From contig CAUUMS010000003.1 in NCBI GenBank assembly GCA_963546395.1, positions 82,833 through 146,832 on the forward strand: a DNA stretch of 64,000 bases, in the 5' to 3' direction. The translations under genes and the position numbers were made by a program. The stretch comes from an uncultured Bacteroidia bacterium. GTDB taxonomy: Bacteria > Bacteroidota > Bacteroidia > Bacteroidales > CAJPTX01. Positions 22 through 47,292 of this stretch are shown piece after piece (within the stretch, counting starts at the first letter, position 1; each line of letters starts with the position of its first letter). The notes below the pieces were generated by a model. It was not told the origin of the DNA and made no database searches. It worked only from the letters and a program-made list of their open reading frames with translations.

Positions 22-92
22 TGACCCATGGTGTAATGGCAGCACAGCAGATTTTGGTTCTGTTAGTCTAGGTTCGAGTCCTGGTGGGTCAA
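22..92 (+). tRNA. tRNA-Gln (anticodon TTG)
   Basis: Hand-folded cloverleaf. The acceptor stem tgaccca/tgggtca is perfect over 7 bp. D stem is gtgt/gcac. Anticodon stem is gcaga/tctgt with loop ttTTGgt. T arm is ctagg-ttcgagt-cctgg. Length is 71 nt and CCA is not encoded. Confidence 0.85.
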
Positions 93-35830: not shown

Positions 35831-35860
35831 TTGCTATTACACCTTACACCACGCGCAGTA

Positions 35861-36634
35861 ATGCCCACTTCCCTTTTTGAAGACATCATATTCGGCCCAG
35901 TGCGTAGCCGGCGGCTGGGCGTTTCGCTCGGTATCAACTTGTTGCCGCAGCACAACAAGTATTGCAATTTCAACTGCATCTACTGCGAATGTGGCTGGAC
36001 GAGTCGCAAGCAGCTACCCGACCTGCCCCCATTTCAGCTTGTGCACGAGCGGCTTGAGCAGCGACTGAGCACCATGCATCAGCAGGGTGAGCCGTTGGAT
36101 GTCATCACCTTTGCGGGCAATGGCGAGCCTACGATGCACCCGCATTTTGCGGATGTGGTCGATAGTGCTATAACGCTGCGGGACAGATATTACCCAGAGG
36201 CGAAGGTGGTGGTGCTGTCTAACGCTAGCATGCTGACGCACCCGCGGGTTGCGGAGGCCTTGCGACGGGTGGATAAGCCAGTGCTGAAGCTCGACTCGGC
36301 TATCGATAGCACTTTTCAGCTCATCAATGGCCCTCTCATGCCGCTCACGGCGCAGCAGGTTATCGGGCACCTGCTGGATTTTGGGCATGATTTTACCCTG
36401 CAAACTCTCTTCCTGCGGGGACAGTTCGATGGGCAACGCGTAGATAATACCACGGAGTTAGAAGTGGGGGCCTGGCTTGCCGCCGTGGAGAAGATACGCC
36501 CACGCGATGTGATGATTTATACGCTCGACCGTGATACGCCAGCCAGTGGCCTGGTGAAGGTGCCAATGGATGATCTCCAGTCCATTGCGCGACGAGTAGA
36601 GGCCCTAGGTATCCCTACGCAGGTGCGGGGGTAG
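35861..36634 (+). CDS. Radical SAM protein (small housekeeping-type, no SPASM domain)
   Basis: CNFNCIYC (Cx3Cx2C) after GPVRSRRLGVSLGINL. 257 aa from the first ATG. Abuts rpe. Confidence 0.75.
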   Translation: MPTSLFEDIIFGPVRSRRLGVSLGINLLPQHNKYCNFNCIYCECGWTSRKQLPDLPPFQLVHERLEQRLSTMHQQGEPLDVITFAGNGEPTMHPHFADVVDSAITLRDRYYPEAKVVVLSNASMLTHPRVAEALRRVDKPVLKLDSAIDSTFQLINGPLMPLTAQQVIGHLLDFGHDFTLQTLFLRGQFDGQRVDNTTELEVGAWLAAVEKIRPRDVMIYTLDRDTPASGLVKVPMDDLQSIARRVEALGIPTQVRG

Positions 36635-36834: not shown

Positions 36835-37608
36835 CTAGAGCAACTTGAGGTGAGTGGCTACTGCAATGGCCTCGGAGATGCTGCTAACGTTAAGTTTTGT
36901 AAAAATATTCTTGCGGTAGTATTTTACGGCATCCTTGGATTTATTGATTTTCAAGGCGATTTCGTTGATCGACAACCCCTGGTGGGCCATGCGAATCATG
37001 GCCAATTCATTCTCGGTCAGAAGAACGTGATCTACAGGCTTCCAGCTTTTGCTCTTCCGTGAGAAGTACCACATTTGTTGGCGATTGCAGGAGCAGATGC
37101 GGGCGGTGCGAGCTTTCCGCGATGGGGCCAATGACACCAGGCAAAGGGCTAGCCAGATGTTGCCATCCGCATCCAATTTCAGGGGGGTAATCTGGTGGTT
37201 GAGCAGGATGTTTACCTTGGGATTATCATCGAAAATGTGGAGGTTGTAGGATAGGGTGTATTTACAGCGATCGGAGATATCAAGGCGCGTGAAGAAGTCG
37301 AGGCCTGCCTTGTTGATCTGCATGAGGAAGTCGAGATCTTCTGCTAGCACATGCTTGTGATAGAAGTTGAACCCCTCCTGCAGCATCGTTTCCACGCTCT
37401 CCCCGCATAGAAAAAGCGGATTGCCGGATACGTGGAGGAAGTTTAGCCGGAAGAAGTCGATGATGTAAATGGACTGGTAGGTGACGCGTTCAAACGCTGA
37501 TGCACACTCGATGTGATGTCGTACCTCAGAGTATGCTTCTTCGGCAACCTGTGGACAAATTCCCGGCGGCAGTAGCGACCGGACGATGTCAGTGAGTCGT
37601 AGATCCAT
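36835..37608 (-). CDS. LuxR/GerE-family transcriptional regulator with an N-terminal PAS-like sensor domain
   Basis: C-terminal HTH LTENELAMIRMAHQGLSINEIALKINKSKDAVKYYRKNIFTKLNV. The gene is AT-rich compared with its neighbours. It is divergent from the peptide operon. Confidence 0.8.
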   Translation of the reverse strand: MDLRLTDIVRSLLPPGICPQVAEEAYSEVRHHIECASAFERVTYQSIYIIDFFRLNFLHVSGNPLFLCGESVETMLQEGFNFYHKHVLAEDLDFLMQINKAGLDFFTRLDISDRCKYTLSYNLHIFDDNPKVNILLNHQITPLKLDADGNIWLALCLVSLAPSRKARTARICSCNRQQMWYFSRKSKSWKPVDHVLLTENELAMIRMAHQGLSINEIALKINKSKDAVKYYRKNIFTKLNVSSISEAIAVATHLKLL

Positions 37609-37627
37609 GGCGTTATTGCTATAGTGG

Positions 37628-37635
37628 CAAATTTA
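37628..37635 (-). promoter_or_regulatory. -7 promoter box (TAaaTTTG on the minus strand) for the LuxR-type gene
   Basis: caaattta on the plus strand, 20 nt upstream of the start at 37608. Confidence 0.4.
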
Positions 37636-37974
37636 ATGGATCCGTCGGAGTTTAAGCGTTGCCAGCGCATGGGATTTGCGTTGCTCGAGGAGGCATGTAT
37701 GTTATGATTGCCTCGTTTGAATGCAAAGTCATGAATTTGCACTAGCCTCCTAGTCGTGTAAACGCTAAGATACCGGGCCTTAAGTGGATTCGCTACGAAT
37801 TGCAAGATCGTTGCCACCTAGTAATAAAATAGGACTTCATTTGATCCCTCTTAGGTGTAGATTGGGGTGATTGTGATTCTCCTTGCGCGAGAGGCCTTGC
37901 GCCCTGTGCTGTGATGCGGAGATGGAGAGTTTCATACTTTCTTGGTAAGCATTTTGAGAGGCAAAGGGCCGTGA

Positions 37975-38012
37975 TTACCCGATGGGGTAAAAGTGGCATT
38001 ATTACCCTTTTG
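37975..38012 (+). promoter_or_regulatory. Candidate operator/promoter of the peptide operon
   Basis: Palindrome TTACCC-gatg-GGGTAA (37975..37990) plus a third TTACCC half-site (38002..38007). The half-site overlaps a near-consensus -7 box TAcccTTTTG (38003..38012). Confidence 0.3.
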
Positions 38013-38296
38013 TGTATTGTGAGCGTTGAGGTGTGTTCCGAAATTTGCAATCGTAAAGGAGATGACGACGGTGCCAATGGGGCGCAAAAGTGGATTTCCT
38101 ATTACAAAATGGCAGGTTGCTGACGAGTGATTTGCTAGGCGTGGGGTGTGGGAGCACGTGATTCTGCACTTTCGCTTTCAGAGGGGAGGCTTACTTCGAA
38201 GGTTCCTTCTGAAAGATGAGGTCGGTAAATCCTCAACGCCAAAAGCCGCAGCGAATGGGTCGCTGTGAGGTGTTTCAATCGTAATTACTACGAGTA

Positions 38297-38500
38297 ATGA
38301 TAGAGAAATTGAATTTTGATGAGCTTCAGCCGTCAGCGTTTGAAGCTATCGTGGGTGGGGCTGATAATGATGCCCAGGTGCAAGGATTTTTCGGTCTGAT
38401 TATCTGCTGTAATGACAAAAAGAAGAAGCCGAAGCCGCCAGATCAAGTGGTGAAGCCAGATGCTGTCAGTGGAAATGGAGGAGATGGTGGTATCCAGTAA
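38297..38500 (+). CDS. RiPP/bacteriocin precursor peptide with a double-glycine leader
   Basis: 67 aa: MIEKLNFDELQPSAFEAIVGG / ADNDAQVQGFFGLIICCNDKKKKPKPPDQVVKPDAVSGNGGDGGIQ. The leader has hydrophobic residues at -4, -7, -12 and -15 and GG at -2/-1. It is the first gene of an operon that encodes a rSAM maturase and a C39-ABC exporter. Confidence 0.75.
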   Translation: MIEKLNFDELQPSAFEAIVGGADNDAQVQGFFGLIICCNDKKKKPKPPDQVVKPDAVSGNGGDGGIQ

Positions 38501-38535
38501 CTTTTAGGATACAAATCATGTCCTAGACAATGAGA

Positions 38536-38580
38536 GGGGGGAAGCTGGACTTCTCCAGTTTCCCCCCATTTTCTTTCATT
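38536..38580 (+). terminator. Hairpin attenuator/terminator between the precursor and maturase genes
   Basis: 14-bp stem ggggggaagctgga/tccagtttcccccc (one G-U pair), loop cttc, then the T-rich attttctttcatttc. Confidence 0.65.
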
Positions 38581-38601
38581 TCAGTCTGAAGGAGGTAGCC
38601 A

Positions 38602-39951
38602 ATGGAGGTGATAAGGTATCAGCTGGCCCCGTATTGGGTTTTGCGGCATGACGAGCACCGGCACGATTGCTATACCCTTTTCGATATCAGAGCTGCTAAG
38701 ATATACACCATTAACCGCTCCATTTTTCGCCTTCTCTCATTCATTGAGGCGAGTGGTAAGCGGCTCGACGAGGTGGTGGACTTCTTTGGGCAGGCAAACG
38801 AGATTGATTACAGCATGGTCTTTAGCAATCTCAACAAGCAGTGGGATGGTCTGGTGCTCAATACGAATGCAGAGGTGAGGGTTGCAGAGCATCCAAGACT
38901 CCAGTTCACTCCTCGGGTGCCGGTGTGCTCCTCGCCTCGGACCGCGGAGATTCAGCTTACCACGCGGTGCAATCTGGAGTGCTTGCACTGCCTCCACTCC
39001 TGTGGGCGCGATAGGCATGACGCGCTGATCTCGGGCCAGAAGTGGGTTAGAATTCTGCGTGAGCTAGAGGCTAATCGGATGCGAATTGTCACCCTTACCG
39101 GGGGTGAGCTCTTTACGCACCCCGACATCGATACGATAATCGAGGCCTTGGGTAAGATGCGGATGCAATTCGTCATCCTCACCAATGCGATGCTCATTAC
39201 CCCCGAGCGGGCCAGGATGCTAGCGCATCCTAATATTCTACTCTCCATCTCCCTGGATGGTAGCACGGAGGAGTCACATGACTTTCTGCGTGGCGCAGGG
39301 GCTTATCGGGTGCTTATGCGCAAGATGGAGCTGCTTGCTAGTTTGGGGGTGGAATGGGTGCTCTCCGTGACGCTGCATGCCCAGAATACCGGGCAGATAG
39401 AGGGTCTTGTGGAGTATGCGCTTGCGAGTAACGTGAAAGCACTGAACTTTACCATCTTGGACGACATAGGAAGGGCGCAGGACAATCGTATTTTGCATTT
39501 GACGAGGGCGCAGCGTCGGGACTGTAAGCAGCGGATACAACGCTTGCAAAAGCAGTATGCGCAGATACTTCCTATTGTTTTGCTTGATCCTGAGGAGGGT
39601 TTTGAATCCTCTGATTCTGGCTCGCCGCATGCGGCTGATGATGAGCCAGTGACGTGTACTGGTGCGATATCGCACATAGCCATTGCCACGGATGGGAGTG
39701 TGTACCCATGCGTGTATGCTTTTGGAGTAGACTCTCTTTTTGCTGGGCGTATGACGGAGCGTACGCTCGGCGAAATCTGGAATACCGATAAGTGGTCGCT
39801 GCTGAGAGGGGGCATTACGATGCAGGATCTGCATCAGTGCAAATCGTGCACCCTACGGAGTAGTTGTCAGACAAAAAGCTGTAGGGTACGTGCGCTGAAG
39901 TATAAGGGCGACCTCTACGCAGCGCCGAAGTGTGTGGTCTTTCCCCATTAA
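38602..39951 (+). CDS. Radical SAM/SPASM peptide maturase with an N-terminal RRE (PqqD-like) domain
   Basis: Cx3Cx2C at C123/C127/C130 (TTRCNLECLHC) and GGE-like TLTGGEL. SPASM cysteines are C352-x12-G-x4-C370, C413-x2-C416-x5-C422-x4-C427 and C444. About 100 aa precede the core. Confidence 0.85.
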   Translation: MEVIRYQLAPYWVLRHDEHRHDCYTLFDIRAAKIYTINRSIFRLLSFIEASGKRLDEVVDFFGQANEIDYSMVFSNLNKQWDGLVLNTNAEVRVAEHPRLQFTPRVPVCSSPRTAEIQLTTRCNLECLHCLHSCGRDRHDALISGQKWVRILRELEANRMRIVTLTGGELFTHPDIDTIIEALGKMRMQFVILTNAMLITPERARMLAHPNILLSISLDGSTEESHDFLRGAGAYRVLMRKMELLASLGVEWVLSVTLHAQNTGQIEGLVEYALASNVKALNFTILDDIGRAQDNRILHLTRAQRRDCKQRIQRLQKQYAQILPIVLLDPEEGFESSDSGSPHAADDEPVTCTGAISHIAIATDGSVYPCVYAFGVDSLFAGRMTERTLGEIWNTDKWSLLRGGITMQDLHQCKSCTLRSSCQTKSCRVRALKYKGDLYAAPKCVVFPH

Positions 39952-39962
39952 AAGTTTAGACG

Positions 39963-42245
39963 ATGAGACATTTTTTACTTCTCTTGACCATAGTCCTCTG
40001 CACGTCTCCCGCCTGGGGACAGCAAGGTATCAATGCGTTGGTGTTGGATCTCGATGGCAAGCCGCTTGAGTATTGCAATGTGGTGGGATACACCAAGGAC
40101 AGCGTCTTTATGCGGGGTACCATAACCGACAGCCTGGGGCGTTTCAACATTTCCAATGTCGACAGCCTCTTTTACCTGCGTTTTAGCAGCTTGGGCTATG
40201 CCACGCAGGATGTGCCTGTGCTGAATTTTCCCGCCCAGGTACGTATGGCCCCAGAGAATATCGCTGTGGATGGTGTTGTGGTGGAGGGGCGTAGGCCTCG
40301 TCTGACGATGGAGCGAGGGAAGCTCAAAATGAATGTTAGGGGAACCATCCTATCGGAGCGTCCCCATGTTGGCAAAGTGCTATCGCAGATACCAGGCCTT
40401 ACGGCAGAGAGTAACGGTGAGGCCTCGCTGATTGGTGGGGGAACTCTCGTTACGTTTATCGATGGCCGAAAGGTGCTAAGCTCTGACGAATTGCAAGCCT
40501 TGGATCCCAAGGACATTGAATCGATAACTCTGGATCGTGCGCCGGGTACACGTTATGGCAGTGGGGTTCGGGCTGTGCTCAATATTCGGACTGTACACCG
40601 ATTCGATCAGATATCCGTTCTCGCAAGGAGTTGGGCCGATTTCAATCATCTGGTCTCTTATGGGGGGAGTGCGCAGGTGGGGTACTACACCAAAAACACC
40701 AAGTTCCTCTTTTACATCTGGCATCGCAACGATAGGGAGTTAAAAACTGAGCTGATGGATGCCAAGAGTGCGCCATTCAAGCAGCTCCTCGTGCGGAGAA
40801 TTGACACGACGCACTACCTAAAGAATTATGCCCGTGTGCAGATGGATGTTCTCCCGAATGAGAAGCTTAGTACAGGGGTGCGGTATAATTTCTCGTGGAA
40901 CAGAGAGACAACATCCGATCTTACCCGGACGCTGTTCAACCCAGGGCATGCCGCTTGGGAAAGGGTTGACGCAACCGGAGATGTGAGGGGTAATTCGCCG
41001 TCGCACCATGTCAGCGGCTACGTGACCTACAAGCCTACCAAGGACTGGGAAATTGAGCTTAATGCCGATGTGTTTGCCAGAGATATGCGCAGGCGACAGC
41101 TTACCCATGAGCGCAGTGCAGCCGTTCATCGGGATATCAACTGGAAGACAGATGCGCACTACCTACTCTGGCAGCTTTCGCCACGTGTGAGCTACAGCTT
41201 CACCAAGGAGCAAGCGCTCGAGGCGGGGGCCGATATCAACCATATCACGGGCGATAGGCAGCAGTATAAGGAGAACCGGATGAGCGTTGATGGGCGTAAT
41301 GGGGAGGCTCTCTATGCTGCGTACACCAATTACACCTATGCGCTGTCCGAGAAATGGAATCTCTCAGCAGGGCTTCGTTATGAGCATGCCGCTAGCCGGC
41401 TCAGCGATGCGCGGGTGCCTGCGAACGATGTTAGTAGAACGTATGACAACCTTTTCTTCTCTGGGAAGGTCTCTGGCCAGATAGGGAATGCCATGCACGT
41501 ATTCGACGTGAGCTCCGGCACCCAGCGCCCAGCGTTGGAGGATCTGAGTAATAACAGCTACTACTCTAGTCGATTCATATTGCAGGAGTCCAACCCCAAG
41601 CTAATACCGGCGAAGATCTATCGGGCCAACTATGCGTTCAATTATGGCCCCATATTCGCCGGGCTAAGCTACCGCTACACTCGTGACCACATCGACCATC
41701 TCATACACCAGAATTCCAATGATCCTGATGGGTATGTATTCGCCAAGGCCAACTTTAAGCACCATCATTCAGGCCAGGCCATGCTGGGAATGCAGATGTC
41801 GTTGGCGAAATGGTACACTATCGATATCTCGGGGCTAGCGCAGCTCGAGCGGATTGATGGAAAGCAGTATGGGCTCGCCCTCAAGGCTCGTCCGCTCTAC
41901 TACGGCAAGATATCACAGACATTCTCGTTCTCGTGGGTTAACTTCGAAATCGAGTATGCCTATCAGAGCCCCCTCACTGCGGGAACATTCGAAGCGCGTG
42001 AGCAGCATACGCTTGAGGCATCTGTTTGGCGATCCTTTTTCAAGGACAGGCTGTATGTATACATCGAGGCATCCAATATACTTGCTGCCAGGGATGTTGC
42101 GTACACTCGTGTTGGAGGGCTCTCCCTACTGCATGACGATTACCGGGATACACGAAAGATCAAGTTGTTCATTCGTTACCGGTTTAACAAAGCGACGAGC
42201 AAGAACCGAACGAGTGCTGCTTCGGAGTCTATAGATCGCCTATAG
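39963..42245 (+). CDS. Outer-membrane beta-barrel protein with an N-terminal CarboxypepD_reg-like domain (TonB-dependent-receptor-like), paralogue 1
   Basis: Signal peptide MRHFLLLLTIVLCTSPAWG/QQ, Carb-reg-like domain (VLDLDGKPLEYCNVVGY...GTITDSLGRFNI), plug-like segment (VLSQIPGL...IESITLDRAPGTRYGS), and a long barrel ending ...LFIRYRF plus a basic tail. 760 aa. Confidence 0.8.
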   Translation: MRHFLLLLTIVLCTSPAWGQQGINALVLDLDGKPLEYCNVVGYTKDSVFMRGTITDSLGRFNISNVDSLFYLRFSSLGYATQDVPVLNFPAQVRMAPENIAVDGVVVEGRRPRLTMERGKLKMNVRGTILSERPHVGKVLSQIPGLTAESNGEASLIGGGTLVTFIDGRKVLSSDELQALDPKDIESITLDRAPGTRYGSGVRAVLNIRTVHRFDQISVLARSWADFNHLVSYGGSAQVGYYTKNTKFLFYIWHRNDRELKTELMDAKSAPFKQLLVRRIDTTHYLKNYARVQMDVLPNEKLSTGVRYNFSWNRETTSDLTRTLFNPGHAAWERVDATGDVRGNSPSHHVSGYVTYKPTKDWEIELNADVFARDMRRRQLTHERSAAVHRDINWKTDAHYLLWQLSPRVSYSFTKEQALEAGADINHITGDRQQYKENRMSVDGRNGEALYAAYTNYTYALSEKWNLSAGLRYEHAASRLSDARVPANDVSRTYDNLFFSGKVSGQIGNAMHVFDVSSGTQRPALEDLSNNSYYSSRFILQESNPKLIPAKIYRANYAFNYGPIFAGLSYRYTRDHIDHLIHQNSNDPDGYVFAKANFKHHHSGQAMLGMQMSLAKWYTIDISGLAQLERIDGKQYGLALKARPLYYGKISQTFSFSWVNFEIEYAYQSPLTAGTFEAREQHTLEASVWRSFFKDRLYVYIEASNILAARDVAYTRVGGLSLLHDDYRDTRKIKLFIRYRFNKATSKNRTSAASESIDRL

Positions 42246-42246
42246 C

Positions 42247-42311
42247 GTGGAGTTCCTCAAGCAGCGTGATACGATAGATTGCGGCCCATAATGTCTGGCT
42301 TCCCGCATTAA
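42247..42311 (+). pseudogene. Duplication scar: 5' relic of the C39-ABC gene fused to a 3' relic of the rSAM gene
   Basis: 42247..42299 matches 44604..44656 at 46 of 53 nt by hand count (VEFLKQRDTIDCGP*) but carries an in-frame TAA. 42300..42311 (ttcccgcattaa) matches the last codons of the rSAM gene (tttccccattaa at 39940..39951). Confidence 0.7.
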
Positions 42312-42322
42312 AAGTTTGAGTA

Positions 42323-44602
42323 ATGAGACGCTGTTTACTTCTCCTAATCATAGTGCTTTGCACCTCTTCTGCGTGGGCTCAGCAAGGCATTAGCGCACGG
42401 GTCATCGATTTCGATGGTAAACCGCTCGAGTACTGCAATGTGGTGGGCTACACCAGGGACAGCGTGTTCGTGCGGGGGACAATAACCGATAGCCTCGGGA
42501 ATTTCAACATAGCCAACGTCGATAGCCTGTTCTACCTGCGCTTTACCAGCCTTGGTTATACCACCCAGGACGTGCCAGTGATGAATTTTCCCGCCCAGGT
42601 GCGCATGGCTGCCGAAAATATTGCTGTGGGCGATGTGGTGGTAGAGGGGCGTAGGCCCAAGCTGGTCATGCAGGGTGGGAAGCTCAGGATGAATGTTAAG
42701 GGGACAATCCTGTCCGAGCGTCCCACCGTTGACAAAGTGCTATCGCAGATACCGGGGCTTACGGCAAATAACGAGGGTGCATCACTGATCGGCGGTGGCA
42801 CCCTCGTTACGCTTATTGATGGGAGGCGAGTTCTTAACGCGAGCGAACTTCAGGCTTTGGATCCCAAGGATATCGAGTCTATAACGATGGATCGTGCTCC
42901 TGGGGCACGTTATGGCAGCGAGGTGAGGGCTGTGCTGAATATTCGCACCGTGCATCGCTTCGATCAGCTATCTGTGCTCGTGAGGGGTAGAGCCGCATTC
43001 AACCACTTGTTCTCGCACTGGGAAAGTGCGCAAGTGGGGTATCACACCAAGAAAGCCAAGTTCCTTTTCTATGCTAGCGGTAACGATAAGAGAGTGCTGG
43101 AGACGCAGCGGTTAGATGCCACAATTGTACCTGCTAAGGAGTTGCGTACAAATCTTGTCGATACGACTGCTTACAGGGGGTACTATACCTTCCTTCAGGT
43201 AGATCTCTTTCCTAGTAAGAAGATCAATGCTGGTGTGTCGTATCACTTCATTATGCGCCTCCTGGGGATGGGTGTTATTAGTCGCCTGCGATTCAATCCA
43301 GGGCATGCTGCTTGGGAGGATGTCATCTCGAGTGGCAGCTTGAAGGACAACTCACCCTCCCACCATGTCAATAGCTACGTAACCTACAAGCCCACCTCAG
43401 CCTGGGAGATAGAGCTTGAGACCGACGTGTTTACCCGGAACATGCATCGGCGCCAGTACACGCACGAGCGTGAGGCCGTGCGTGAGCGGGATGTCAACTT
43501 GCGCACCGATACCCACTATCTTCTCTGGCAGCTTTCGCCACGTGCTAGTTACAGCTTTACCGAGAGCCAGAAGCTCGAGGTTGGTGTTCATGTCAACCGC
43601 ATTACTGGCGATCGGAAGCAATATGTGGCGAATTGGATCAGCTCCGAAGGACGCAATAATGAGGAACTCTATGCGGCTTACACCAACTACAGCTATGCCC
43701 CTTCCGAAAAGTGGAGCCTTAGTGCTGGCCTGCGCTATGAGCGGGCTAATAGCCGTCTCAATGATTTGCGAGTGCTAGGTGCTGATGTAGATCGGACATT
43801 CGACAACCTCTTTTTCTCGGGAAAGATCGCTGGCCAGATCGGAAAAACCACGCACCAGTTCGACGTGAGCTCTGGCACGCAGCGCCCTTTGTTGGAGGAG
43901 CTTAGCAATCACAGCGTTTACATCAACAAGTTCCTGATACAAGAGTCCAACCCAAATCTGATTCCCTCCAAGATTTATCGTGCCAATTACACATTCAATT
44001 ACGGGCCCCTGTTTGCGGGGATAAACTACCAGTACACCCGCAATCACATTGCCGGTTACATGCAGATTAATCCCAAAGATCCCGATGGCTATGTGCTCTC
44101 CAATACCAACTACAAGCACCACCATCGTGGGCAGGTGCTGCTGGGCATGGAGATGTCGCTGGCAAAGTGGTACTCGTTTAGCATCAATGGATTGGGGCAA
44201 ATGGAGCGAATCGATGGCAGGCAGTATGGCCTCTCCATTAAGATGCGCCCGCTCTACTACGGAAAGATCACACACACCTTCACGTTCCCGTGGTTTAACT
44301 TTAGTGTGGAGTACTCTTACCGGAGTGCACATACCATGAATGTCAACGAGACGGGGGAGCAGCACATGCTCGAAGCCTCCGTCTGGAAATCTTTCTTCGA
44401 CGGACGGCTTTACGTGAACATCGTGGGCGAGGATCTTTTGGCAGCTAGAAACGTTACCTACACACGCATTGGAGGCCTTGCCGTCCAAGCCGAGGAATAC
44501 AGTGATACACGGTGCGTTGCCCTGTTTCTGCGATACCGGTTTAATGCGTCCACGAGCAAGAATCGAAAGAGTGCTGCCTCGGAGTCTATAGATCGCCTAT
44601 AG
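42323..44602 (+). CDS. Outer-membrane beta-barrel protein with an N-terminal CarboxypepD_reg-like domain, paralogue 2
   Basis: 759 aa and collinear with paralogue 1. The N-terminal roughly 210 aa and the C-terminal tail (SKNR.SAASESIDRL) are near-identical, while the central barrel/loop regions are much more diverged. Confidence 0.8.
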   Translation: MRRCLLLLIIVLCTSSAWAQQGISARVIDFDGKPLEYCNVVGYTRDSVFVRGTITDSLGNFNIANVDSLFYLRFTSLGYTTQDVPVMNFPAQVRMAAENIAVGDVVVEGRRPKLVMQGGKLRMNVKGTILSERPTVDKVLSQIPGLTANNEGASLIGGGTLVTLIDGRRVLNASELQALDPKDIESITMDRAPGARYGSEVRAVLNIRTVHRFDQLSVLVRGRAAFNHLFSHWESAQVGYHTKKAKFLFYASGNDKRVLETQRLDATIVPAKELRTNLVDTTAYRGYYTFLQVDLFPSKKINAGVSYHFIMRLLGMGVISRLRFNPGHAAWEDVISSGSLKDNSPSHHVNSYVTYKPTSAWEIELETDVFTRNMHRRQYTHEREAVRERDVNLRTDTHYLLWQLSPRASYSFTESQKLEVGVHVNRITGDRKQYVANWISSEGRNNEELYAAYTNYSYAPSEKWSLSAGLRYERANSRLNDLRVLGADVDRTFDNLFFSGKIAGQIGKTTHQFDVSSGTQRPLLEELSNHSVYINKFLIQESNPNLIPSKIYRANYTFNYGPLFAGINYQYTRNHIAGYMQINPKDPDGYVLSNTNYKHHHRGQVLLGMEMSLAKWYSFSINGLGQMERIDGRQYGLSIKMRPLYYGKITHTFTFPWFNFSVEYSYRSAHTMNVNETGEQHMLEASVWKSFFDGRLYVNIVGEDLLAARNVTYTRIGGLAVQAEEYSDTRCVALFLRYRFNASTSKNRKSAASESIDRL

Positions 44603-44603
44603 C

Positions 44604-46805
44604 GTGGAGTTCCTCAAGCAGCGTGATGCGATGGATTGTGGCCCGTCGTGCCTGGCAATGATCGCTGGGCACTATGGGCTGCGTCCTGATCGTGATCATC
44701 TGCGTCGTATCTGTGCCCTCGGCAAAGAGGGCGTATCACTCCTTGGGATCAGCAAGGCGGCTGAGGCCATCGGATTTCGTACTGTGGGCGGGCGTATGGG
44801 GGTAGAGACGCTCACTACGGAGATCCCCCTCCCTTGTATTGTACACTGGAATCAGAATCACTTCGTTGTCGTCTACAAGGTAAAGCGCATACGCCCTGGC
44901 TTGCGCATGATACATGTGGCCGATCCTGCGAAGGGCCTGCTGACCTACACGGAGCAGGAGTTCTGTGAGCATTGGGTTAGCACGCAGGATCACGGCGAAG
45001 GGAAGGGGATAGCCCTTCTCCTTGAACCCTCCGAGGGCTTTTACAGCGGGCAGGATGCTGGTGCAATTGCCAAGAGGGGCTCCCGCCTCGTCTTCCTCTG
45101 GCGATATCTCCGGAGGTACAAGCGATTCTTCTCGCAGCTCATCCTGGGCCTACTGCTGGGGTCGCTCCTTCAGCTCGTGTTCCCATTCCTCACGCAGGCC
45201 ATTGTGGATACAGGCGTGGGAGGGCGCGATCTTAGCTTTGTGTGGCTCGTGCTTTTGGCACAGCTGATGCTTCTTTTCAGTCGCACCGCCATCACATTTA
45301 TCCGCTCCAAGATCCTCCTGCACATCTCCACGCGCATTAACATTTCGCTCGTCTCGGATTTCTTCATCAAGCTCATGAAGCTCCCCATGAAGTTCTTCGA
45401 TACCAAGCTCATGGGCGATCTCTTGCAGCGCATTGAGGATCACCATCGGGTGGAGCAGTTCCTCACCTCTAGTAGCCTTAGCCTGCTTTTCTCCTTTTTC
45501 ACATTCGTAGTCTTTGGGGTAGTGCTAGCGAGCTACAACCTGGGCATCTTCATCGTCTTCCTCCTGGGCACGCTCCTGTATGCTGGCTGGATAGTCCTAT
45601 TCCTGCGCAAGCGTAGGCTACTCGATTATAAGTACTTCGATCAGGCTGGGCGTAACCGTAATGTCACCTACCAGCTCGTTAATGGAATGCAGGAGATCAA
45701 GCTCCAGGGGTGCGAGCAGCGTAAACGTTGGGAGTGGGAGGATGTGCAGGCCGACCTGTTCAAGGTGAATCTCCAGTCGCTCAACCTTAGCCAGGTGCAG
45801 CAGGCTGGGAGCGTTGCCATCAACGAGGTAAAGAATATCCTCACCACCGTGCTTGCCGCCGCGGCGGTCATCCAGGGGCACATGACCCTCGGGATGATGC
45901 TTGCCGTGCAGTACATCATCGGGCAGCTCAATAGCCCTGTGGAGCAGCTCATCCAGTTCATCTACTCCTGGCAGGATGTGAGCATCAGCCTCGACCGTAT
46001 GAGCGAGATCCACACCGAGGCCAATGAGGAGAACAGCGAGCGCATGCGGAGTGGCTACACTGCTGAACCCTCGCTCACAGTGGAGGGCCTCTCGTTCAAA
46101 TACGACCCCTATAGCTCCCGGGACATCCTTGCCGACATCCATCTCACCATCCCTCATGGCCAGGTGACGGCCATCGTTGGGGCTAGTGGCAGCGGAAAAA
46201 CAACGCTCATCAAGCTTTTGCTCGGATTCTACGAGCCGCTGGCTGGTTGCATTCGGGTCGGTGATACGCCCCTCAGTGAGTATAACCTTGCGTGGTGGCG
46301 TGGCCAGTGCGGGGCCGTGATGCAGGATGGCTACCTCTTCTCCGACACTATAGCGCGCAATATCGCCATCTCTGATGATGAGCCAGACATCGAGCGCATA
46401 CGTAACGCAGCGCGCATTGCAAATATCGCTGACTACATCGAGGCCCTGCCGTTGGGGTACAACACGATGATAGGGCAGGATGGGCAGGGCATCAGCCAGG
46501 GGCAACGTCAGCGCATCCTCATCGCCCGTGTTGTCTACAAGAACCCCACGTTTGTCTTTCTCGATGAGGCGACCAATGCTCTCGATGCCCGCAACGAGCG
46601 TAGCATCACCGAGCGACTGGCGGAGTTCTACCGTGGGAAGACGGTAGTGGTGGTTGCGCATCGTCTATCCACCGTTCGTAATGCCGATCAGATCGTGGTC
46701 TTAGATGCAGGTAAGATCGTTGAGGTCGGCACGCATGAAGAGTTGACAGCAAGCGAGGGACAGTACTTCCATCTGGTCAAGAATCAGCTGGAGCTCGGGA
46801 GTTGA
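44604..46805 (+). CDS. Peptidase-C39-domain ABC transporter (PCAT; bacteriocin/RiPP leader-cleaving exporter)
   Basis: C39 catalytic Cys in QRDAMDCGPSCLAM, with His (NQNHFVVVY) and Asp (HVADP). Six-TM ABC membrane domain. Walker A GASGSGKTT, signature ISQGQRQR, Walker B FVFLDEAT. GTG start lies 1 nt after the upstream stop. Confidence 0.9.
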   Translation: MEFLKQRDAMDCGPSCLAMIAGHYGLRPDRDHLRRICALGKEGVSLLGISKAAEAIGFRTVGGRMGVETLTTEIPLPCIVHWNQNHFVVVYKVKRIRPGLRMIHVADPAKGLLTYTEQEFCEHWVSTQDHGEGKGIALLLEPSEGFYSGQDAGAIAKRGSRLVFLWRYLRRYKRFFSQLILGLLLGSLLQLVFPFLTQAIVDTGVGGRDLSFVWLVLLAQLMLLFSRTAITFIRSKILLHISTRINISLVSDFFIKLMKLPMKFFDTKLMGDLLQRIEDHHRVEQFLTSSSLSLLFSFFTFVVFGVVLASYNLGIFIVFLLGTLLYAGWIVLFLRKRRLLDYKYFDQAGRNRNVTYQLVNGMQEIKLQGCEQRKRWEWEDVQADLFKVNLQSLNLSQVQQAGSVAINEVKNILTTVLAAAAVIQGHMTLGMMLAVQYIIGQLNSPVEQLIQFIYSWQDVSISLDRMSEIHTEANEENSERMRSGYTAEPSLTVEGLSFKYDPYSSRDILADIHLTIPHGQVTAIVGASGSGKTTLIKLLLGFYEPLAGCIRVGDTPLSEYNLAWWRGQCGAVMQDGYLFSDTIARNIAISDDEPDIERIRNAARIANIADYIEALPLGYNTMIGQDGQGISQGQRQRILIARVVYKNPTFVFLDEATNALDARNERSITERLAEFYRGKTVVVVAHRLSTVRNADQIVVLDAGKIVEVGTHEELTASEGQYFHLVKNQLELGS

Positions 46806-46806
46806 C

Positions 46807-47292
46807 ATGGAAAAGCAGCAGGGGCAAGACCAGAGCTTCGAGCTCCGTAGTGAGAAAGTCCGAAGCGTTGTGGGGCAGATGCCCCCATCCATTCTCCGGT
46901 ACGGCATAGCCGTTATTGGGGTCGCCTTGCTTTGCCTATTGATAGTGGCCTATTTCCTGCCCTATAAGCAGGTCTACCGAGGAACCCTTACGGTGTATGG
47001 CACTCAATCCGAGGGGGCATTCGACAGTGTGGATATCGCCGTTTTGCTCAAGTTCGAGAATCGGCCCTCAGGGCCCGTGAGTGGTCAGCAGCTTTACCTA
47101 CAGTCTTCCGTGGGGTGCTTTGCTGGGCAGCTCCTTCAGCTCTCCGCCGAGCGTGATACCATCGAGAGGCAAGCTGCCCTCTGCCGATTCAGGGCAACCG
47201 AGATCAGAGCGATAGAAAATCAGACGGTCGACTTCCAGCTCGTGCACTCATCGGGCAATCTCTTGCAGAAGATGCTTGGTAGGGGCATGTGA
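46807..47292 (+). CDS. Truncated HlyD-like membrane-fusion protein (mini-MFP)
   Basis: 161 aa. The N-terminus resembles Bacteroidota HlyD proteins (LRSEKVRSVVGQMPPSILRYGIAVIGVALLCLL, one TM). There is no room for the coiled-coil/lipoyl hairpin. The ATG lies 1 nt after the PCAT stop. Confidence 0.6.
   Translation: MEKQQGQDQSFELRSEKVRSVVGQMPPSILRYGIAVIGVALLCLLIVAYFLPYKQVYRGTLTVYGTQSEGAFDSVDIAVLLKFENRPSGPVSGQQLYLQSSVGCFAGQLLQLSAERDTIERQAALCRFRATEIRAIENQTVDFQLVHSSGNLLQKMLGRGM

Follow-up and report, generated by a model that had tools for sequence, protein, structure and literature searches.

Does the small open reading frame (ORF) at positions 38297-38500 of a 64,000-nucleotide stretch of DNA from an uncultured Bacteroidia bacterium (order Bacteroidales; contig CAUUMS010000003.1) encode the precursor of a secreted, enzymatically modified peptide, and what might such a peptide do? 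An initial annotation, made from the sequence alone, had described a double-glycine (GG) leader followed by an odd core with two adjacent cysteines and an oligo-Lys-Pro tract. Peptides modified by radical S-adenosylmethionine (SAM) enzymes are almost entirely uncharacterized in the Bacteroidales, even though members of this order are dominant in the communities of the human gut and mouth. Here we analyze the ORF and its surroundings within the whole stretch, referred to as the window. We estimate a probability of roughly 75% that the ORF is the precursor of a secreted, radical SAM-modified peptide belonging to a small Bacteroidales family, whose members share a GG leader and the motif G-x-x-x-C-C-N.

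The ORF encodes a peptide with a double-glycine leader

The ORF opens with the first start codon past an in-frame stop (the stop-to-stop frame begins at 38285), and its limits and translation agree letter for letter with those reported in the initial annotation. The parts of the precursor are:

38297-38500, plus strand: precursor ORF, 67 amino acids, ATG start and TAA stop, first gene of the operon
38297-38359, plus strand: double-glycine leader, M1-G21 (MIEKLNFDELQPSAFEAIVGG), with Gly-Gly and the hydrophobic pattern
38360-38413, plus strand: conserved core, A22-N39 (ADNDAQVQGFFGLIICCN), ending in G33-x-x-x-C37-C38-N39, the presumed site of modification by the radical SAM enzyme
38414-38500, plus strand: hypervariable hydrophilic tail, D40-Q67 (DKKKKPKPPDQVVKPDAVSGNGGDGGIQ), and the stop codon

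The leader follows the claimed spacing exactly, with G21 at -1, G20 at -2 and hydrophobic residues at -4 (I18), -7 (F15), -12 (L10) and -15 (F7), and the core begins at nucleotide 38360 as proposed. The two adjacent cysteines, C37 and C38 (38405-38410), are indeed the only ones in the core. G33 is encoded at 38393-38395 and the Cys-Cys-Asn (CCN) triplet at 38405-38413, and the KKKKPKPP tract and the Gly/Asp-rich end with its two GG dipeptides lie where they were described, after N39 and D40.

Across all six reading frames of the window, a regular expression requiring Met, hydrophobic residues at -15, -12, -7 and -4 and then GG matched a single one of 659 candidate small ORFs, the precursor itself, while 20 shuffles gave a mean of 0.15 matches. 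A chance match to the leader pattern is thus unlikely. No minus-strand ORF of at least 40 amino acids overlaps the precursor, a six-frame scan for GG...CCN found no second copy in the window, and independent assemblies call the identical 67-amino-acid product as a gene.

A Bacteroidales family defined by G-x-x-x-C-C-N

A search of 5.8 billion proteins with the peptide as query returned only three relatives. Because of this low yield, we walked the family outward through homologues of the enzyme encoded downstream and read the DNA upstream of each. In this manner we collected 16 distinct precursors, each directly upstream of an enzyme homologue (28-100% identity). All hosts are Bacteroidales and include an uncultured Prevotella, a Porphyromonas metagenome-assembled genome (MAG), an oral Bacteroidia MAG, Dysgonomonas termitidis, Candidatus Amulumruptor (Muribaculaceae) and several metagenomes. 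Considering the related loci in which upstream DNA is present and a small ORF is recognizable, an ORF of the same type precedes the enzyme gene at the same position and in the same frame in every case. A search for small ORFs with such a leader beside radical SAM genes, which the initial annotation had put forward as a check, therefore yields 16 precursors in the same frame of syntenic loci. Since the homologous ORFs share both position and frame, the ORF is neither unconserved nor displaced into another frame elsewhere.

M1, the Gly at -1, G33, C37, C38 and N39 do not vary in the alignment of the 16 precursors. Gly is found at -2 in 15 of 16 sequences, the exception ending in AAG. After correction of four mis-split AGG sites, a hydrophobic residue is present at -4 and at -12 in all 16 precursors, at -7 in 13/16 and at -15 in 12/16, which bears out the predicted leader pattern across the family. 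The signature can be summarized as a double-glycine leader with G-x-x-x-C-C-N 17-27 residues later. The CC-N-D residues had been singled out as potentially reactive; C37, C38 and N39 are invariant, but D40 is not conserved. The invariant Gly four residues ahead of the first Cys, on the other hand, was absent from the earlier description.

Two further proposals have to be revised. The oligo-Lys-Pro tract was described as part of the core; however, everything after N39 varies, even between strains of one species. Because the residues that follow CCN number from 1 to 40 across the family and cannot be aligned, KKKKPKPP is an allele-specific tail rather than a family feature. Similarly, the functional unit is not the 46-amino-acid core first suggested; since a hypervariable tail follows N39, the conserved core comprises about 18 residues (A22-N39). 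In six precursors just 1-2 residues separate CCN from the C-terminus: those of Dysgonomonas end in CCNF, CCNL and CCNPT, those of a metagenome clade in CCNG and CCNGD, and those of another clade in CCNLN. Hydrophilic tails of 10-40 residues, rich in Pro, Lys, Asp and Gly, are found in the Porphyromonas/Prevotella-type and Muribaculaceae-type clades.

A profile built from the 16 sequences retrieved only 12 proteins from the 5.8-billion protein set, annotated as hypothetical or automatically named as bacteriocins; the UniRef name of one Dysgonomonas homologue is 'Class IIb bacteriocin'. Against curated models, the 16 relatives gave sub-threshold matches to generic GG-leader families, with TIGR01847 and PF10439 appearing in 3/16 and 2/16 sequences, respectively. 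A literature search for 'CCN motif' with radical SAM returned nothing, and the human-microbiome survey of peptides that are synthesized ribosomally and modified post-translationally (RiPPs) in PMC11953309 contains no family-level description. The family is rare, uncurated and specific to Bacteroidales.

Several loci of the family carry features of their own. Two distant loci (L107:5756-5902 and L108:5755-5901; 27-28% enzyme identity) encode precursors with K-C-C-V-N-N, a leader ending in AG and two extra upstream cysteines, and may mark the edge of the CCN family. A ParE/YoeB-type toxin gene with a small partner sits between two barrel genes in an oral Bacteroidia locus (L007:13868-14449; also in L008-L010). 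The more distant subfamilies (L011:4699-6884, L013:5324-7605, L015:1511-3792 and L024:9219-9602) have two extra upstream genes, encoding a protein of ~545-600 amino acids with a faint TPR match and a secreted protein of ~120-130 amino acids with a conserved Cys-Cys (…DDPCCDIPPM…). Three precursors of the minimal type, with CCN plus 1-2 residues at the end, occur in tandem in the cultured D. termitidis CCUG 66188 (L022:9260-9781). The same D. termitidis locus encodes a two-component system, one barrel, two peptidase-containing ATP-binding cassette (ABC) transporters and a 229-amino-acid adaptor with an HlyD domain.

Constant leader, divergent alleles

Two loci, L003 and L179, belong to the same species as the window; their flanks share 95-100% DNA identity with it, with low synonymous (pS 0.06-0.10) and nonsynonymous (pN 0.001-0.01) differences. 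Across four alleles of this species, nucleotide identity of 99-100% extends over the leader and the ~100 nucleotides that precede its start codon, and the encoded leader is the same in all alleles save for residue 2. In contrast, the identity of the tail drops to 31-36%, which is unalignable, in comparison with strains whose flanks are 95-100% identical. In L179 the core has diverged as well (pS 0.46, pN 0.14) next to an enzyme that is ~99% identical. In L003 the gene for the enzyme is an old allele as well (78% amino acid identity, pS 0.48, pN 0.12); its changes cluster in residues ~270-360, which separate the SAM barrel from the SPASM domain. In the nearest allele, L180, the tail shows pN of 0.25, about equal to its pS of 0.26, both several-fold above background, and micro-variants of the window allele differ by S58C and D62G, both in the tail.

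Other genes of the operon change little between strains with unalignable cores or tails: pN is 0.003-0.010 for the LuxR-type regulator and 0.001 for the transporter, and barrel 2 differs at 5 of 759 residues. Co-variation of the regulator, the barrels or the transporter with the peptide alleles, which a pherotype model would predict, was looked for and not found. The 161-amino-acid protein at the end of the operon has a mildly raised pN of 0.035, confined to its periplasmic part, a weak signal from a single strain pair.

A constant leader and export machinery thus surround a variable cassette of core, tail and sometimes enzyme. This allele pattern is expected of diversifying or balancing selection, or of shuffling by recombination, and is not expected of a housekeeping cofactor. 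The agr and com pherotype loci are other cases in which a module of peptide and processing enzyme varies as divergent alleles. We consider it confirmed that the ORF is a real gene, and its reading as the precursor of a RiPP with a double-glycine leader is supported.

The radical SAM enzyme and its likely chemistry

The gene that follows the precursor starts 101 nucleotides downstream of it:

38602-39951, plus strand: radical SAM/SPASM maturase, 449 amino acids, with an N-terminal domain (~1-90) resembling a RiPP recognition element (RRE); Pfam Radical_SAM 1e-18, SPASM 2.4e-9

The cysteines of its CX3CX2C motif (C123, C127 and C130) are invariant in 11 homologues, as are seven cysteines of the SPASM domain (C352, C370, C413, C416, C422, C427 and C444). 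In an AlphaFold2 (AF2) model with a predicted local distance difference test score (pLDDT) of 76, residues 1-90 (pLDDT ~80) form a beta-beta-beta-alpha-alpha-alpha domain, which is the topology of an RRE; the Pfam PqqD model was not detected in the enzyme, and the RRE assignment is made at the level of fold. The best Foldseek match is to full-length SuiB (TM-score 0.70 over ~457 columns), followed by SkfB, CteB and TigE. By sequence profile, the matches among solved structures are SkfB (E = 1e-30), SuiB, PqqE, CteB and anSME. The enzyme is a peptide-modifying radical SAM/SPASM maturase of an uncurated subfamily. Because it scores below the cutoff of every curated radical SAM family, the type of reaction cannot be read from homology, and for the same reason a new peptide chemistry is plausible.

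Within the core, invariance is limited to the side chains of the two Cys and the Asn, joined by the Gly four residues ahead. In radical SAM RiPPs, invariant cysteines normally act as sulfur donors for thioethers. Precedents for nearby linkages include NxxcB, which forms a thioether from a Cys sulfur to the beta-carbon of Asn (PMC9389541), PapB, which can crosslink a directly adjacent Cys-Asp pair (PMC9413430), and TqqB, which links adjacent residues into a backbone ring, a morpholine (PMC9389541). Because six precursors have only 1-2 residues after CCN, a downstream acceptor would have to be the Asn; the invariant Gly is the alternative, upstream acceptor. Thioether formation at the CCN motif is our tentative choice, held at somewhat short of even odds, and what is left is divided between radical reactions of other kinds and the use of the two cysteines as ligands or in a disulfide.

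A peptidase-containing transporter, a small putative adaptor and two outer-membrane barrels

The four remaining genes of the operon include that of the peptidase-containing ABC transporter (PCAT):

39963-42245, plus strand: barrel 1 (OMP1, for outer-membrane protein), 760 amino acids; signal peptide, CarboxypepD_reg, weak Plug, PF14905 8.6e-38
42323-44602, plus strand: barrel 2 (OMP2), 759 amino acids, tandem paralogue 67% identical to OMP1; PF14905 1.5e-36
44604-46805, plus strand: PCAT, 733 amino acids, GTG start; C39 peptidase, ABC membrane domain and ATPase
46807-47292, plus strand: 161-amino-acid single-pass membrane protein, translationally coupled to the PCAT; transmembrane (TM) helix at residues 33-51

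All three PCAT domains are supported by Pfam (Peptidase_C39 5e-28, ABC_membrane 2.3e-27, ABC_tran 1.3e-28). The N-terminus, VEFLKQRDAMDCGPSC..., carries Q6 and C12 (in DCG), and NHFVVV and ADP motifs supply the His and Asp. The GTG start is required because it includes the catalytic Cys, and GTG is conserved in L003. There, the PCAT call (L003:16059-18206, 715 amino acids) starts at a later ATG and loses the catalytic Cys, which a GTG 54 nucleotides upstream restores; wrongly annotated PCAT starts may be frequent in such loci. Since the C39 residues are intact and the leader is conserved, cleavage after G21 is expected from the sequence.

The 161-amino-acid protein is one of a family of ~160-residue proteins for which there are 419 cluster representatives. 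Short HlyD_3/HlyD_D23 proteins share its first 60 residues, and the Dysgonomonas gene at the same operon position encodes a 229-amino-acid HlyD_2/HlyD_3 protein whose N-terminus aligns with it by hhalign at 98.5% probability. The AF2 model (pLDDT 90) consists of the TM helix and a six-strand beta domain, with neither a hairpin nor a lipoyl domain. Foldseek returned mostly adaptor beta-barrel domains (BesA, MacA, EmrA, ZneB, MexA and AcrA), all weak and none with E < 1e-3, and there is no Pfam HlyD match. Relatives with 27-30% identity also directly follow ABC or PCAT genes, one of them being succeeded by a PF14905 barrel. The protein looks like a reduced membrane-fusion (adaptor) protein of the HlyD type.

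A homologous barrel gene directly follows the radical SAM gene in every locus of the family. The operon contains no OEP/TolC domain, its outer-membrane genes being the PF14905 barrels. The combination of PCAT, small protein and PF14905 barrel is found again in a locus where the small protein has only 30% identity, and we conclude that these three, with the small protein as a reduced HlyD-like adaptor, constitute a recurrent module. TonB_dep_Rec_b-barrel scores 27.0 bits for OMP1, equal to the 27.0 cutoff, and 22.4 for OMP2, and Plug scores 19-21 against a cutoff of 23.9. A conserved L-x-E-V-x-V-x-G-x-R-P-like stretch near residue 100 resembles, by eye, a TonB box. Sequence searches of the PDB with the barrel and with the 161-amino-acid protein gave no meaningful matches. 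Since the weak Plug and TonB_dep_Rec matches make the barrels resemble TonB-dependent importers, export through them would be unusual. PF14905 barrels also occur at Bacteroidetes graspetide loci, for which export was predicted (PMC8939145). We lean slightly toward the barrels exporting the peptide; a role in uptake or immunity is possible but clearly less likely.

The barrels showed further peculiarities. In L003, of the same species as the window, barrel 1 ends at 635 amino acids owing to a premature stop (L003:11362-13269) while barrel 2 is intact, which suggests that the two are redundant. Between strains, residues 688-711 of barrel 1 (window ~42024-42095) carry the changes V688I, S691T, K694N, D695K, R696S, Y700S, I706L and D711N; the rest of the barrel is conserved, and this patch may be a loop at the surface on which selection acts. 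All PF14905 barrels of the window (42170-42245 and 44530-44602) and of L005, L007, L011, L013 and L016 have an extension of ~20 residues after the last strand (...RYRFN...), which is conserved and ends in (S/A)E(S/A)Ix(R)L (SESIxRL). On the periplasmic side, where it is expected to lie, this extension might touch the adaptor or the PCAT.

Regulation and operon setting

Three features frame the expression of the precursor:

36835-37608, minus strand: LuxR/GerE-family regulator, 257 amino acids, divergent from the precursor; Pfam GerE E = 1e-11
38200-38296, plus strand: ultra-conserved 5' region of the precursor (promoter or 5' untranslated region, 5'UTR), 99-100% identity in four alleles
38536-38577, plus strand: 14-bp G+C-rich hairpin with a T-rich run, found by a terminator scan, between the precursor stop and the radical SAM start

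The N-terminal ~190 residues of the regulator have no recognized domain, and 690 nucleotides separate its gene from the precursor. The same 257-amino-acid LuxR gene lies divergently upstream in L003, L179, L005 and L006. It is not universal: L017 has TetR and Dysgonomonas a two-component system (histidine kinase and OmpR-type regulator). A Bacteroidetes -7 box, TAAATTTG, at 37628-37635 on the minus strand serves the LuxR gene. An 11-nucleotide inverted repeat, CTTTCAGAGGG / CCTTCTGAAAG, occurs at 38175-38185 and 38205-38215, 19 nucleotides apart in the near-invariant 5' region, and might serve as an operator or form a hairpin in the 5'UTR; the 5' region folds only moderately better than shuffled sequences (z = -2.5).

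The RNA of 38495-38605 folds at -43.1 kcal/mol (z = -4.3), and none of 200 shuffles was as stable. Of 12 family loci, 11 have a hairpin in the gap between precursor and enzyme genes, the hairpins being unrelated in sequence. By its sequence, the hairpin at 38536-38577 looks like an intrinsic terminator or attenuator. A leaky terminator that raises the ratio of precursor to enzyme is a common design of bacteriocin operons, with which the hairpin agrees.

A gene-caller ORF of 46-50 residues in the spacer (37970-38123, plus strand; L001:175-327; L003:9440-9580) is probably no gene. We rejected it because its conservation (77-93%) is below that of the adjoining sequence (98-100%) and many of its amino acids differ between strains. 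Rfam found only a tRNA at 22-92 (plus strand) in the whole window and nothing in the 690-nucleotide spacer or near the precursor.

The cluster from 36835 to 47292 has a G+C content of 52.9% compared to 59.1% for the rest of the window (46% for the precursor and 47.5% for the spacer; 58% for the whole window), which is consistent with horizontal acquisition. In L005, at 55% enzyme identity, the block from LuxR to the 161-amino-acid protein is placed between unrelated genes. Because the block remains intact there, we take it as the unit. Upstream of LuxR, rpe and a small radical SAM gene are ordinary neighbors, as is CreD on the downstream side. The small radical SAM protein beside rpe (267 amino acids, 35831-36634, plus strand) gives weak viperin-like and MoaA-like matches below cutoffs; since it is found in strains of the same species but is missing from the L005 cluster, it lies outside the peptide operon.

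A proposed pathway and the alternatives

The most likely function of the mature product is that of a secreted, strain-variable antagonistic (bacteriocin-like) peptide. The deep divergence, within a species, of the alleles of core and tail and in some cases of the enzyme is what an antagonistic or strain-recognition peptide would be expected to show. The precursor would be transcribed from the conserved 5' region, probably under the control of the divergent LuxR-type regulator, and the hairpin past its stop codon would limit read-through into the enzyme and export genes, leaving the precursor in excess. The RRE-like domain is predicted to bind the leader while the enzyme modifies the Cys-Cys-Asn region; the likeliest reaction would be the formation of one or two thioethers from Cys sulfur to a carbon of the Asn or of the upstream Gly. 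Judging from the catalytic residues and the conserved leader, the C39 domain would then cut after G21 and the ABC part would export the peptide. The recurrence of the three-gene module suggests that the adaptor and the PF14905 barrel(s) complete the route across the outer membrane. The Lys/Pro/Gly/Asp-rich tail would be a strain-variable and probably disordered appendage, either trimmed or tuning the target range.

Several observations weigh against this pathway. The window peptide has no match in Pfam or NCBIfam even at E <= 10 and thus fits no curated double-glycine leader model, including TIGR01847 and PF10439, and upstream of the precursor there is no convincing match to a sigma-70-like site or to the Bacteroidetes TAnnTTTG box. 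Among 25 listed NCBIfam matches the enzyme falls far below all cutoffs, the best being ScmE with 123 bits versus 400, and it qualifies for no curated maturase family (MftC, WgkB, PqqE, StsB, SkfB, AlbA, PapB, CbpB and others). SuiB, its best structural match, forms a C-C rather than a C-S bond, and the adjacent cysteines could instead serve as ligands of a metal or cluster or form a vicinal disulfide. The barrels are closer to plugged importers than to any known export duct, and an export role for them would be unprecedented. Moreover, the L007-L010 subfamily has barrels without a PCAT in the locus and AAG in place of the GG site, and no immunity gene was recognized at the locus.

The last of these points would suit a peptide that acts as a strain-specific signal (a pheromone, or 'pherotype'), sensed through the LuxR regulator or a two-component system and possibly after re-uptake through the barrels, which look like plugged importers. 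A regulator is always nearby, of the LuxR type in Porphyromonas/Prevotella-type loci and a histidine kinase with an OmpR-type partner in Dysgonomonas, and the peptide and its processing enzyme vary as alleles within conserved flanks in a manner analogous to agr and com pherotypes. We nevertheless judge a signal unlikely: the candidate receptors (LuxR, OMP2 and PCAT) do not co-vary with the peptide alleles, several family loci have no LuxR, and the operon encodes no inner-membrane importer. The missing importer counts equally against a RiPP metallophore, in which a modified Cys-Cys peptide would leave through the PCAT and return loaded with metal through the two barrels. Methanobactin operons do have a TonB-dependent transporter of their own, both vicinal cysteines are invariant, every locus, including those that lack the PCAT, has a PF14905 barrel gene after that of the enzyme, and the acidic and Gly-rich parts of the tail could add ligands. 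However, the operon also has neither a metal-responsive regulator nor a periplasmic binding protein, hypervariable alleles are not expected of a metallophore, and such barrels also accompany a PCAT and small adaptor in unrelated loci as well as occurring at graspetide loci (PMC8939145). This distribution argues that the barrel is a generic transport partner and not a peptide-specific receptor, and we regard a metallophore as improbable.

Less probable again is an unmodified class II (double-glycine) bacteriocin that is processed by the PCAT while the radical SAM enzyme acts elsewhere. The leader type is common to unmodified bacteriocins, a few family members show weak, sub-threshold matches to TIGR01847, ComC and Bacteriocin_IIc, and the automatic 'Class IIb' name of the Dysgonomonas homologue points the same way. 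Yet the precursor adjoins a radical SAM gene in every locus (28-100% identity), even without a PCAT, the enzyme has an RRE-like leader-binding domain, precursor and enzyme diverge as one allele block in L003, and the invariant core residues, limited to Cys, Cys, Asn and Gly, are typical of a modification site. We give this explanation very little weight. That the ORF is a chance, untranslated open frame in a long intergenic region might be argued from its mere 67 residues, the missing Pfam and NCBIfam matches and the lack of a recognizable promoter. Its position, frame and motif are kept across genera, however, the leader pattern is found once in the window, and the leader is under purifying selection while the tail is free to vary. 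These comparative data effectively refute a chance frame, whose probability we consider negligible.

The secreted, radical SAM-modified antagonistic peptide can be taken a step further by combining its parts. CCN would then be converted by a new radical SAM/SPASM subfamily into a RiPP structure not seen before, for which a tiny thiomorpholine-like thioether ring joining adjacent or next-but-one residues (by analogy to the morpholine of TqqB) or a warhead derived from Cys-Cys may be candidates; export would proceed through the PCAT, the minimal adaptor and a plugged barrel that replaces TolC; and the core, tail and enzyme would act as a specificity cassette. Such a cassette may define strain compatibility or killing groups among human-associated Bacteroidales. 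That all of these hold at once is doubtful, being considerably less likely than the general assignment.

Implications

The CCN family offers a compact and testable set of loci, with a fixed four-residue signature and an enzyme outside curated families, and cultured D. termitidis CCUG 66188 provides a convenient experimental model. The small protein that follows the PCAT may be the membrane-fusion protein (MFP) that earlier surveys did not find, and the operon as a whole suggests a route for such peptides over the Bacteroidales outer membrane. Because an identical leader is set against unalignable core and tail alleles, the locus points to competition or recognition at the level of strains, which is relevant to microbiome ecology. 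Uncharacterized radical SAM RiPP clusters are numerous, and the CCN locus overturns nothing in current understanding.

Comparison with known systems

Sactipeptides and ranthipeptides (SkfA/SkfB, CteA/CteB, PapA/PapB and NxxcA/NxxcB) resemble the CCN locus in having a leader-core precursor beside a radical SAM/SPASM enzyme and invariant cysteines as obvious sulfur donors, and SkfB and CteB are among the top matches of the enzyme. They differ in that the CCN motif lies at or near the C-terminus of its precursors, that the enzyme falls below every curated sactipeptide or ranthipeptide maturase cutoff (the thioether being a prediction here), and that the host is a Gram-negative member of the Bacteroidales with outer-membrane genes in the operon. 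The initial annotation had also set the peptide apart from the six-Cys SCIFF precursors, and we agree: it has two adjacent cysteines, no CxxxD or NxxC repeats and no NCBIfam precursor match. The streptide system SuiA/SuiB shares the layout of RRE, radical SAM barrel and SPASM domain (TM-score 0.70). SuiB, however, makes a Lys-Trp C-C bond, the CCN core has no conserved Lys or Trp, and identity is 16-18%.

Within the Bacteroidetes, section 9 of PMC9389541 (2022) presents an uncharacterized radical SAM RiPP (RaS-RiPP) cluster of Parabacteroides distasonis in which a regulator, a ~60-amino-acid precursor, a radical SAM enzyme, a receptor of the TonB-dependent type and a PCAT follow in the same order, a resemblance that concerns gene order. 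No Parabacteroides appeared among the relatives of the radical SAM enzyme in a scan of species-representative genomes. According to PMC10352776, GG-leader peptides of Bacteroidales associate with a PCAT and an OMP and with no recognized MFP; 'CCN' is absent from its text. The TIGR04149 and PF14406 (Bacteroid_pep) families are likewise Bacteroidetes peptides with GG-type leaders beside radical SAM enzymes. One of the 16 relatives has a sub-threshold match to each (E ~0.06), whereas the window peptide matches neither at E <= 10, and no enzyme match to the partner radical SAM models of these families was among those listed. As far as these searches show, CCN peptides fall outside both models.

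With regard to export, HlyB/HlyD/TolC, CvaB/CvaA/TolC and MacAB-TolC are comparable in that a PCAT or ABC protein is followed by a membrane-anchored periplasmic protein with an HlyD-family N-terminus. The adaptor of the CCN locus is unlike theirs in its length of 161 amino acids and, as modeled, in having no long coiled-coil hairpin, and its outer-membrane partner is a PF14905 barrel of the TonB-dependent receptor type rather than a TolC duct. In their population structure, agr (AgrD/AgrB) and the com/blp pherotypes offer an analogy, with a conserved leader and flanks around old, divergent alleles of the mature peptide within a species. Their proteins are unrelated, however, and at the CCN locus we identified neither a co-varying receptor nor an immunity gene. 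In its logic of leader, RRE-radical SAM-SPASM enzyme and PCAT, the CCN locus is thus a RaS-RiPP locus that lies outside any curated precursor or enzyme family. What is new is the G-x-x-x-C-C-N signature, its C-terminal position, the hypervariable tail, the allelic cassette and the reduced adaptor.

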